Origin: Escherichia coli O127:H6 str. E2348/69
GTDB lineage: Bacteria; Pseudomonadota; Gammaproteobacteria; Enterobacterales; Enterobacteriaceae
DNA: 64,000 nucleotides
Direction: 5' to 3' (one strand)
Assembly: GCF_000026545.1 (NCBI RefSeq)
Contig: NC_011601.1
The first letter of the stretch is position 1. Each line of letters begins with the position of its first letter. Below are positions 5,281-5,538 of the stretch, one piece after another. The position numbers and the translations under genes are program-made. The notes beneath the pieces are model-generated. The model had not been told where the DNA came from and did no database searches. It worked only from the letters and a program-made list of their open reading frames with translations.

Positions 5281-5300
5281 GCGCGGGGAAAATCCCCGCG
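5281..5300. terminator. palindromic hairpin at hokB 3' end
   Basis: gcgcgggga aaat ccccgcgc. Confidence 0.5.
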
Positions 5301-5307
5301 CTTGCCC

Positions 5308-5448
5308 TTACCTGGACGTGCAGGCCATGAGCGCAGCAACTTCCTTATCACCGTCCCGGAACCGCAGTTCGTAGAGCGATTGTCGGGTCAGGAGTGTGAA
5401 TGTCAGAATCGTAATGCAGATAATGAGCAGACACACCACCAGAGCGCT
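5308..5448 (-). pseudogene. hokB: Hok-family type I toxin HokB reading frame; N-terminus appears frameshifted
   Basis: frame encodes [44 protein letters not shown]; nearest ATG (5450-5452) is out of frame. Confidence 0.6.
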
Positions 5449-5538
5449 TCATAGCCTTTCTCCTTGCCGGATGGCGGGTAAGAGGCTAAGATCTGAATTG
5501 CTAGGTTCATTCGTTGGCCTCGGTTTGTACTGTAGTGG

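Follow-up and report, generated by a model that had tools for sequence, protein, structure and literature searches.

The closest described counterpart of the hokB locus of Escherichia coli O127:H6 E2348/69 is the hokB/mokB/sokB locus of K-12 MG1655 (b4428/b1420/b4429), which occupies the same position, between ydcA/yncP and trg. Work of the Gerdes laboratory has located the fold-back and translational-activator elements of hok mRNAs in the 5' leader, and the action of Sok at the mok translation initiation region. The K-12 hokA/mokA/sokA locus is a second point of comparison: an IS150 there parts the mok start region from the 3' portion of sok, and mokA and sokA are annotated as pseudogenes. 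Pedersen and Gerdes reportedly described this hokA locus in 1999 as inactivated by IS150, and Schneider in 2000 and Woods in 2006 are said to have found parallel IS150 insertions in hokB/sokB of the Lenski long-term lines.

Repeated IS150 insertions at hokC/nhaA (16,972), trg/mokB, and hokE have also been recorded in evolved E. coli B (PMC5419217). The 5-base deletion and premature stop in hokB of E2348/69 have already been described (PMC12214031, NAR 2025), the deletion having been seen by Sanger sequencing of both DNA and cDNA. A literature search found no paper dealing with hokB together with IS150.

Here, we analyze hokB in a 64,000-nt window of DNA from E2348/69, an EPEC strain; all coordinates refer to this window unless stated otherwise. 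The gene lies on the minus strand (ATG 5452-5450, stop 5310-5308) and is an ordinary pseudogene of a well-known locus type, with a 5-bp deletion that is already published. Taken as a whole, hokB/mokB/sokB of this strain is very probably a dead type I toxin-antitoxin locus that decayed stepwise.

Genomic context of hokB in E2348/69

The gene order gapC-cybB-rydC-ydcA-hokB...trg places hokB at the orthologous position, ydcA-hokB-trg, with aldA, gapC, cybB, rydC, ydcA, and yncP on one side and trg on the other. The locus shares about 97% nucleotide identity over 331 bp with MG1655 hokB, and the mokB start, the hokB Shine-Dalgarno (SD) sequence and ATG, the 3' terminator, and the 5' part of sokB are common to both strains. 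Unlike its K-12 counterpart, the E2348/69 locus has a 5-bp deletion in hokB, a leader split by 5617 bp, a sokB terminator parted from its promoter, and a truncated trg.

Of trg, a 445-bp 3' remnant was located by BLAST against MG1655 (11334-11778, plus strand). The promoter and the first 1196 bp of the gene are gone through a clean 1333-bp deletion (MG1655 1492333-1493665; junction 11333|11334), and at this junction we saw neither an IS nor any obvious microhomology. The deletion is common to E2348/69 and strain 2022H047, so that this EPEC lineage is without the ribose/galactose chemoreceptor Trg. Among the other genes of the region, gapC is intact (3098-4099, minus strand), encoding a 333-aa type I glyceraldehyde-3-phosphate dehydrogenase, whereas K-12 gapC is a frameshifted pseudogene, and the RydC sRNA is encoded between cybB and ydcA (4829-4892, minus strand; Rfam RF00505, 90.5 bits). 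A SECIS_3 selenocysteine insertion element, unrelated to hokB, was found at 57961-58019 on the plus strand (RF01989, 84.3 bits).

IS150 splits the hokB leader and sokB

Comparison with MG1655 by BLAST recovered the hokB region as two separate blocks. MG1655 1492144-1491814 corresponds to 5525-5200, where local K-12 homology ends at 5525, and MG1655 1492332-1492142 corresponds to 11333-11143. The two blocks overlap by 3 bp in MG1655, and this overlap is an AAC target-site duplication; its right copy lies at 5523-5525 (minus strand) and its left copy at 11145-11143. The inserted element is IS150. It lies between ...TATCAAC and CGAGGCC, 12 nt 5' of the mokB ATG and directly 5' of the mokB SD (CGAGG), where the hairpin that terminates sokB on the opposite strand has its foot.

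On the far side of the insertion, the upstream and promoter region of hokB is kept up to the trg deletion junction (11219-11333, minus strand; MG1655 BLAST). It is followed by the first 76 nt of the hokB mRNA leader (11143-11218, minus strand; RF01794 alignment and MG1655 BLAST), which run directly into TGTACTGCACCC..., the left end of IS150. The base equivalent to the transcription start, 11218, is 5766 bp from the hokB ATG; promoter and leader are thus displaced by about 5.6 kb, not lost. The Rfam family RF01794, although named sok, covers the hok mRNA leader as far as the hok ATG. It scored 109.7 bits on the contiguous K-12 locus and 43.7 bits, against a gathering score of 59, on the 3' half in the window (5555-5447); this local remnant is without 52 of the model positions and does not constitute a contiguous hok leader. 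A further RF01794 match at 11066-11218 was considered as a second hok locus and rejected, as hok sequence is matched only by model positions 1 to about 84, the remainder being aligned to the left end of IS150. The 186-bp orphan promoter/leader fragment (11143-11328) shows four differences between E2348/69 and 2022H047, although the 560-bp downstream flanks of the two strains are identical; these differences may reflect decay or a recombination patch.

The antitoxin gene is divided by the same insertion. In MG1655, sokB is annotated at 1492119-1492175 on the strand opposite hokB, and mapping of this annotation places its start at 5500. Only the first 26 of its 57 nt remain beside the promoter, antisense to the mokB translation start (5500-5525, plus strand), and the other 31 nt, which include the 3' arm of the terminator hairpin, are at about 11146-11176; the orphaned 3' half of the terminator is contained in about 11143-11176 (plus strand). 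Folding of the 14-bp terminator hairpin in K-12 yielded -22.2 kcal/mol (z -3.7). The chimeric window sequence at sokB (z -1.4) folds no better than shuffled sequence, and the hairpin is lost. The locus accordingly no longer encodes a Sok RNA complete with its promoter, a single-stranded tail at the 5' end, and a terminator, the hairpin having been split by IS150. The presumed sokB promoter, TTGCCG-N17-TAAGAT at about 5464-5492, was read by eye and is below the scan threshold. The consensus promoter scan called neither the hokB nor the sokB promoter, both of which were placed by homology and by eye, and the one promoter-like and one terminator-like site that it returned for 5200-5900 are at chance level.

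Four nested insertion sequences

The DNA between the two halves of the leader is a 5617-bp IS150 complex made up of four nested IS. Boundaries and duplications were read directly, against the intact elements of strains 746 and 2022H047. Proceeding away from hokB, and with all elements listed on the minus strand, the complex begins with the last 5 bp of IS150, GTACA (5526-5530), comprising the right GTA copy of the next element's duplication and the terminal CA of IS150, as read from the junction sequence. Then come nt 933-1249 of an IS911-like element of the IS3 family (5531-5847), with the orfB 3' end and the right inverted repeat (IR) ...TTGACCACTACA, delimited against the intact 1249-bp copy in 2022H047. 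ISEc21, a 1373-bp member of the IS110 family that made no target duplication, as is usual for this family, occupies 5848-7220 inside this element (transposase 5864-6940; name from PGAP), followed by nt 1-932 of the IS911-like element (7221-8152), with the left IR TGTAGTGGCACACTG..., orfA, and the 5' part of orfB, and the left GTA duplication at 8155-8153. The remainder is IS150 nt 861-1441, comprising the 3' part of orfB and most of the right IR (8153-8722); ISEc13, a 1550-bp IS4-family element inserted in IS150 with the 10-bp duplication CTTACAGAGG (8723-10272); and IS150 nt 1-870, with the left IR, insJ, and the 5' part of insK (10273-11142), both IS150 pieces being delimited by element comparison.

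The host element is identified as IS150 by its ends TGTACTG.../...CAGTACA, its length of about 1443 bp, insJ/insK, and the 3-bp AAC duplication. Against the 1443-bp IS150 of strain 746, its two main pieces show 98.5% and 97.1% identity; the copy in 746 shares 99.7% with MG1655 IS150. The second element (8152-5531, 1249 bp) has its own GTA duplication 2 bp inside the right tip of IS150 and is contiguous at nt 932/933 once ISEc21 is removed. It is 90.1% identical to MG1655 IS911A over 750 bp, with the ends TGTAGTGG/CCACTACA, compared to TGAAGTGG... for IS911, and PGAP labels it simply "IS3 family". In view of the roughly 90% identity and the divergent ends, we denote it IS911-like. ISEc21 encodes a DEDD transposase (PF01548, 72.6 bits; PF02371, Transposase_20, 47.6 bits), and both it and the IS911-like element are co-oriented with hokB.

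Several smaller observations concern these elements. The IS911-like element landed 2 bp inside the outer tip of the right IS150 IR (8153-8155/5528-5530), and its own terminus, TGTAGTG..., is similar to that of IS150, TGTACTG.... IS911 has been reported to target IR-like sequences, and insertion at the IS150 tip would fit this preference. Upstream of 6941-8733, the coordinates of features transferred from NZ_CP059840.2 are 1 bp out (the ISEc13 transposase ORF is at 8734-10107, with 8735-10108 predicted), which indicates a 1-bp indel somewhere in the IS911-like or IS150 DNA of the window.

The original prediction had placed an IS911 end at 5531 and taken IS911 for the element that disrupted the mokB/sokB control region. 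A terminus is indeed found there, 79 bp from the hokB ATG, but it belongs to an IS911-like element, it does not adjoin hok DNA directly, being separated from it by the 5 bp of IS150 (5530-5526), and the primary disruptor is IS150. A direct jump of IS911 into the control region, with deletion of the upstream part of the locus, would explain the terminus at 5531 and the end of local K-12 homology at 5525. The junction sequences refute it, and hardly any probability attaches to it now: GTACA plus AAC between the IS911-like end and hok DNA is an IS150 tip followed by an IS150 duplication; the GTA duplication of the IS911-like element lies inside IS150; next to the IS150 left end, at 11333-11143, leader and promoter survive intact; and the IS150 insertion of strain 746 is not accompanied by an IS911-like element. 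An IS-driven deletion upstream of hokB was likewise rejected, given that all of the IS except the duplication-less ISEc21 have intact target duplications; the sole deletion upstream of hokB is the IS-independent 1333-bp loss in trg. We also considered a hybrid promoter at the right end of the IS911-like element (outward TTGACC, 5542-5537) and discarded it, as there is no acceptable -10 element at 16-18 bp and the scan was empty.

A 5-bp deletion frameshifts both hokB and mokB

Relative to K-12 and strain 746, hokB of E2348/69 is missing 5 bp from codons 3-5, at 5445|5444, where E2348/69 has ATGAAGCG|CTCTGG and strain 746 has ATGAAGCGCAACCCTCTGG. Following the intact SD and ATG, the minus strand of E2348/69 reads ATGAAGCGCTCTGGTGGTG, the K-12 counterpart being ATGAAGCACAACCCTCTGGTGGTG, and the alignment gap of 5 bp falls right after ATGAAGC. 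The lost bases are CAACC (equally, AACCC), as the related strain 746 carries the likely precursor. The hokB pseudogene (5308-5452, minus strand) consequently has its Hok-homologous frame at 5442-5308 and reads L*SALVVCLL...TSR*, with the TGA at 5451-5449; minus-strand translation thus bears out the expectation of an in-frame stop ahead of a Hok frame that ends at 5308, and the alignments bear out that of a small frameshifting lesion.

The SD of hokB (AAGGAG, 5465-5460) is intact, 7 nt before the ATG at 5452, and now serves a 34-aa ORF (5348-5452, minus strand) that has passed into the MokB frame, as found by translation and comparison with MokB. Residues 4-34 equal the C-terminal MokB frame of K-12, and the match to DUF5431 (the Mok family) is weak, at 17 bits, under the cut-off. 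The original prediction was correct that this ATG opens a short peptide in another frame, and wrong in calling the peptide unrelated. The same 5-bp loss frameshifts mokB, also a pseudogene (5403-5510, minus strand), whose first 22 codons from the ATG at 5510 are intact and whose remaining 13 residues are in a shifted, third frame ending at a stop at 5405-5403. Ribosomes starting at ATG 5452 or at the mokB ATG cross the candidate CTG/GTG starts in other frames, and mok-hok coupling is therefore lost; E2348/69 has no overlapping mok frame that is coupled into hok.

The lesion is rare. A 291-bp query across it was 100% identical to E2348/69 and matched nearly all other complete E. coli genomes at 95-99%; 5401 of the 5409 matching genomes are in this band, and the inspected ones contain the extra five bases and a full-length, ATG-started hokB, so that the reference gene neither shares the E2348/69 sequence nor depends on a non-ATG start. 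The deletion and junction are identical in 5 of 5426 complete genomes, namely, E2348/69, two O127:H6 records, and 2022H047 and 2022H048; two of the five are Japanese isolates from 2022. Short indels are a common assembly error in general, and a sequencing or assembly artefact had to be weighed for that reason. We found no specific support for it, and it has next to no chance of being correct: the lesion is neither chance nor an assembly error, because it is identical in five independent complete genomes and confirmed by Sanger sequencing of DNA and cDNA (PMC12214031).

The Hok remnant itself remains clearly recognizable, which counts against a dead locus. The 44-aa remnant in the frame 5442-5311 matches Pfam HOK_GEF (PF01848) at 81.7 bits (cut-off 22) over profile positions 2-42, that is, 41 of 42, and keeps both cysteines, the TACG editing site, and the transmembrane stretch. 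RefSeq/PGAP retains it as a 44-aa "type I toxin-antitoxin system Hok family toxin" (WP_032160888.1; 5308-5442, minus strand) with a CTG start at 5442. hokB could accordingly still be functional, producing a shortened Hok of 43-44 aa from a non-ATG start (CTG 5442 or GTG 5439/5436) on read-through transcripts from the IS, and the shared orientation of hokB, the IS911-like element, and ISEc21 would suit this possibility. hokB cDNA is detectable in EPEC (PMC12214031), which implies that the region is still transcribed from somewhere. We nevertheless consider a functional hokB highly unlikely. The remnant is no translatable Hok/Gef ORF with an SD-served start: the sole SD serves an out-of-frame ATG, the CTG and GTG candidates are 17-20 nt from it, too far for initiation, and a TGA stands two codons upstream in the Hok frame. 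Moreover, the lesion appeared only after the IS150 split, a pattern of neutral decay, and PMC12214031 also concludes that no functional HokB is made in EPEC. WP_032160888.1 is most likely an annotation rescue of a pseudogene.

Order of decay

Comparison of three strains orders the events. In strain 746, the hokB site holds an intact IS150 and no IS911-like element, and both hokB (150 bp) and trg are intact. Strain 2022H047 has intact IS150 and IS911-like elements, the 5-bp deletion, and the truncated trg; E2348/69 has all these features plus ISEc13 and ISEc21. In the first step, IS150 entered the hokB leader. It cut off the mokB/hokB coding part from the promoter and leader nt 1-76 and, at the same time, the sokB terminator from its promoter and 26-nt recognition tail. 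A second step, in the O127:H6 lineage, comprised the IS911-like insertion, the 5-bp loss in hokB, and the 1333-bp deletion in trg, and in a third, ISEc13 entered IS150 and ISEc21 the IS911-like element in E2348/69. The frameshift arose after the IS150 split, as expected for neutral decay in a locus that was already disabled.

The predicted outcome is that no HokB is made, as the sole good SD-ATG pair reads the MokB frame and Mok-Hok coupling would be lost. With the native promoter 5.8 kb away and probably no discrete SokB RNA, regulated hokB expression would be abolished. Inactivation by a lesion in hokB together with an IS in the mokB/sokB control region, as originally proposed, is supported by the alignment, the split leader, and the junctions. 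The proposed echo of the IS-inactivated hok loci of K-12 also holds, hokA being the case in point. The two loci differ in that the IS150 at K-12 hokA is inverted relative to hok, has no evident 3-bp duplication, and leaves the hokA ORF intact, whereas hokB of E2348/69 is frameshifted.

IS150 recurs at the same site of hok leaders

The left hokB-IS150 junction was detected in 556 of 5426 complete E. coli genomes (261-bp query, coverage of at least 80%). Strains 746, CP53, and 2013C-4991 have the same insertion site and orientation as E2348/69 (AAC|IS150|AAC). Unlike E2348/69, the inspected IS150-split strains keep a 49-aa hokB, with IS150 and trg intact, and the frameshift and the nested IS911-like element were added only in the five genomes of the 5426-genome collection. 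The 560-bp downstream flank of CP53 is identical to the IS150-free K-12-type allele, while 746 and E2348/69 carry another allele; judging from these flanks, the IS150-containing hokB allele is apparently polyphyletic, occurring on at least two allelic backgrounds.

Beyond hokB, hokC of strain E3 and a plasmid hok also carry IS150 at the same site, A(A/C)C|CGAGGCC; in both, the orientation agrees and 3 bp are duplicated. The hokC/nhaA site of evolved E. coli B is homologous to the hokB site of E2348/69, the events in B being new and of laboratory origin (PMC5419217): the ACC at REL606 16,972-16,974 is precisely the triplet duplicated by IS150 in hokC of strain E3, a natural insertion. From PMC5419217, we used the gene-level statement on trg/mokB and the hokC site, which was checked against REL606. 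In Table 3 of that paper, the trg/mokB coordinate, 1,272,468, corresponds to chaB in REL606, and the ldr rows have coordinates near trg; the rows appear to be mismatched. Recurrent same-site insertions at hok leaders mark the foot of the sok terminator hairpin as a known IS150 hot spot.

A bolder reading is that hok loci split by IS150 are rewired, not simply dead. mokB-hokB could be read through from co-oriented IS, without the 5' fold-back leader or a terminated SokB; the 5-bp frameshift, present only in the five genomes that also have the IS911-like element, would have been selected to silence a deregulated toxin; and IS150 would recur in the leaders of hokB, hokC, and plasmid hok because it targets the sok terminator/mok SD hairpin by its structure. 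If this were so, IS150 would be a natural antidote to hok addiction modules. We regard the combination of these three proposals as unlikely and retain stepwise decay of a dead locus as the preferred interpretation.

Implications

hokB of E2348/69 is one more documented case of a chromosomal type I toxin locus that decayed through IS insertion followed by a frameshift. Its import for biology at large is small, and the RefSeq protein WP_032160888.1 should not be counted as a functional toxin. The low A-to-I editing published for EPEC hokB RNA was discussed without reference to IS (PMC12214031). With the promoter and leader nt 1-76 lying 5.6 kb upstream, this RNA cannot be the native transcript, and its non-native origin may be relevant to the editing level in EPEC. 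Given that about 10% of complete E. coli genomes have IS150 at the hokB site, surveys of hokB-dependent persistence should examine the leader and not the ORF alone.
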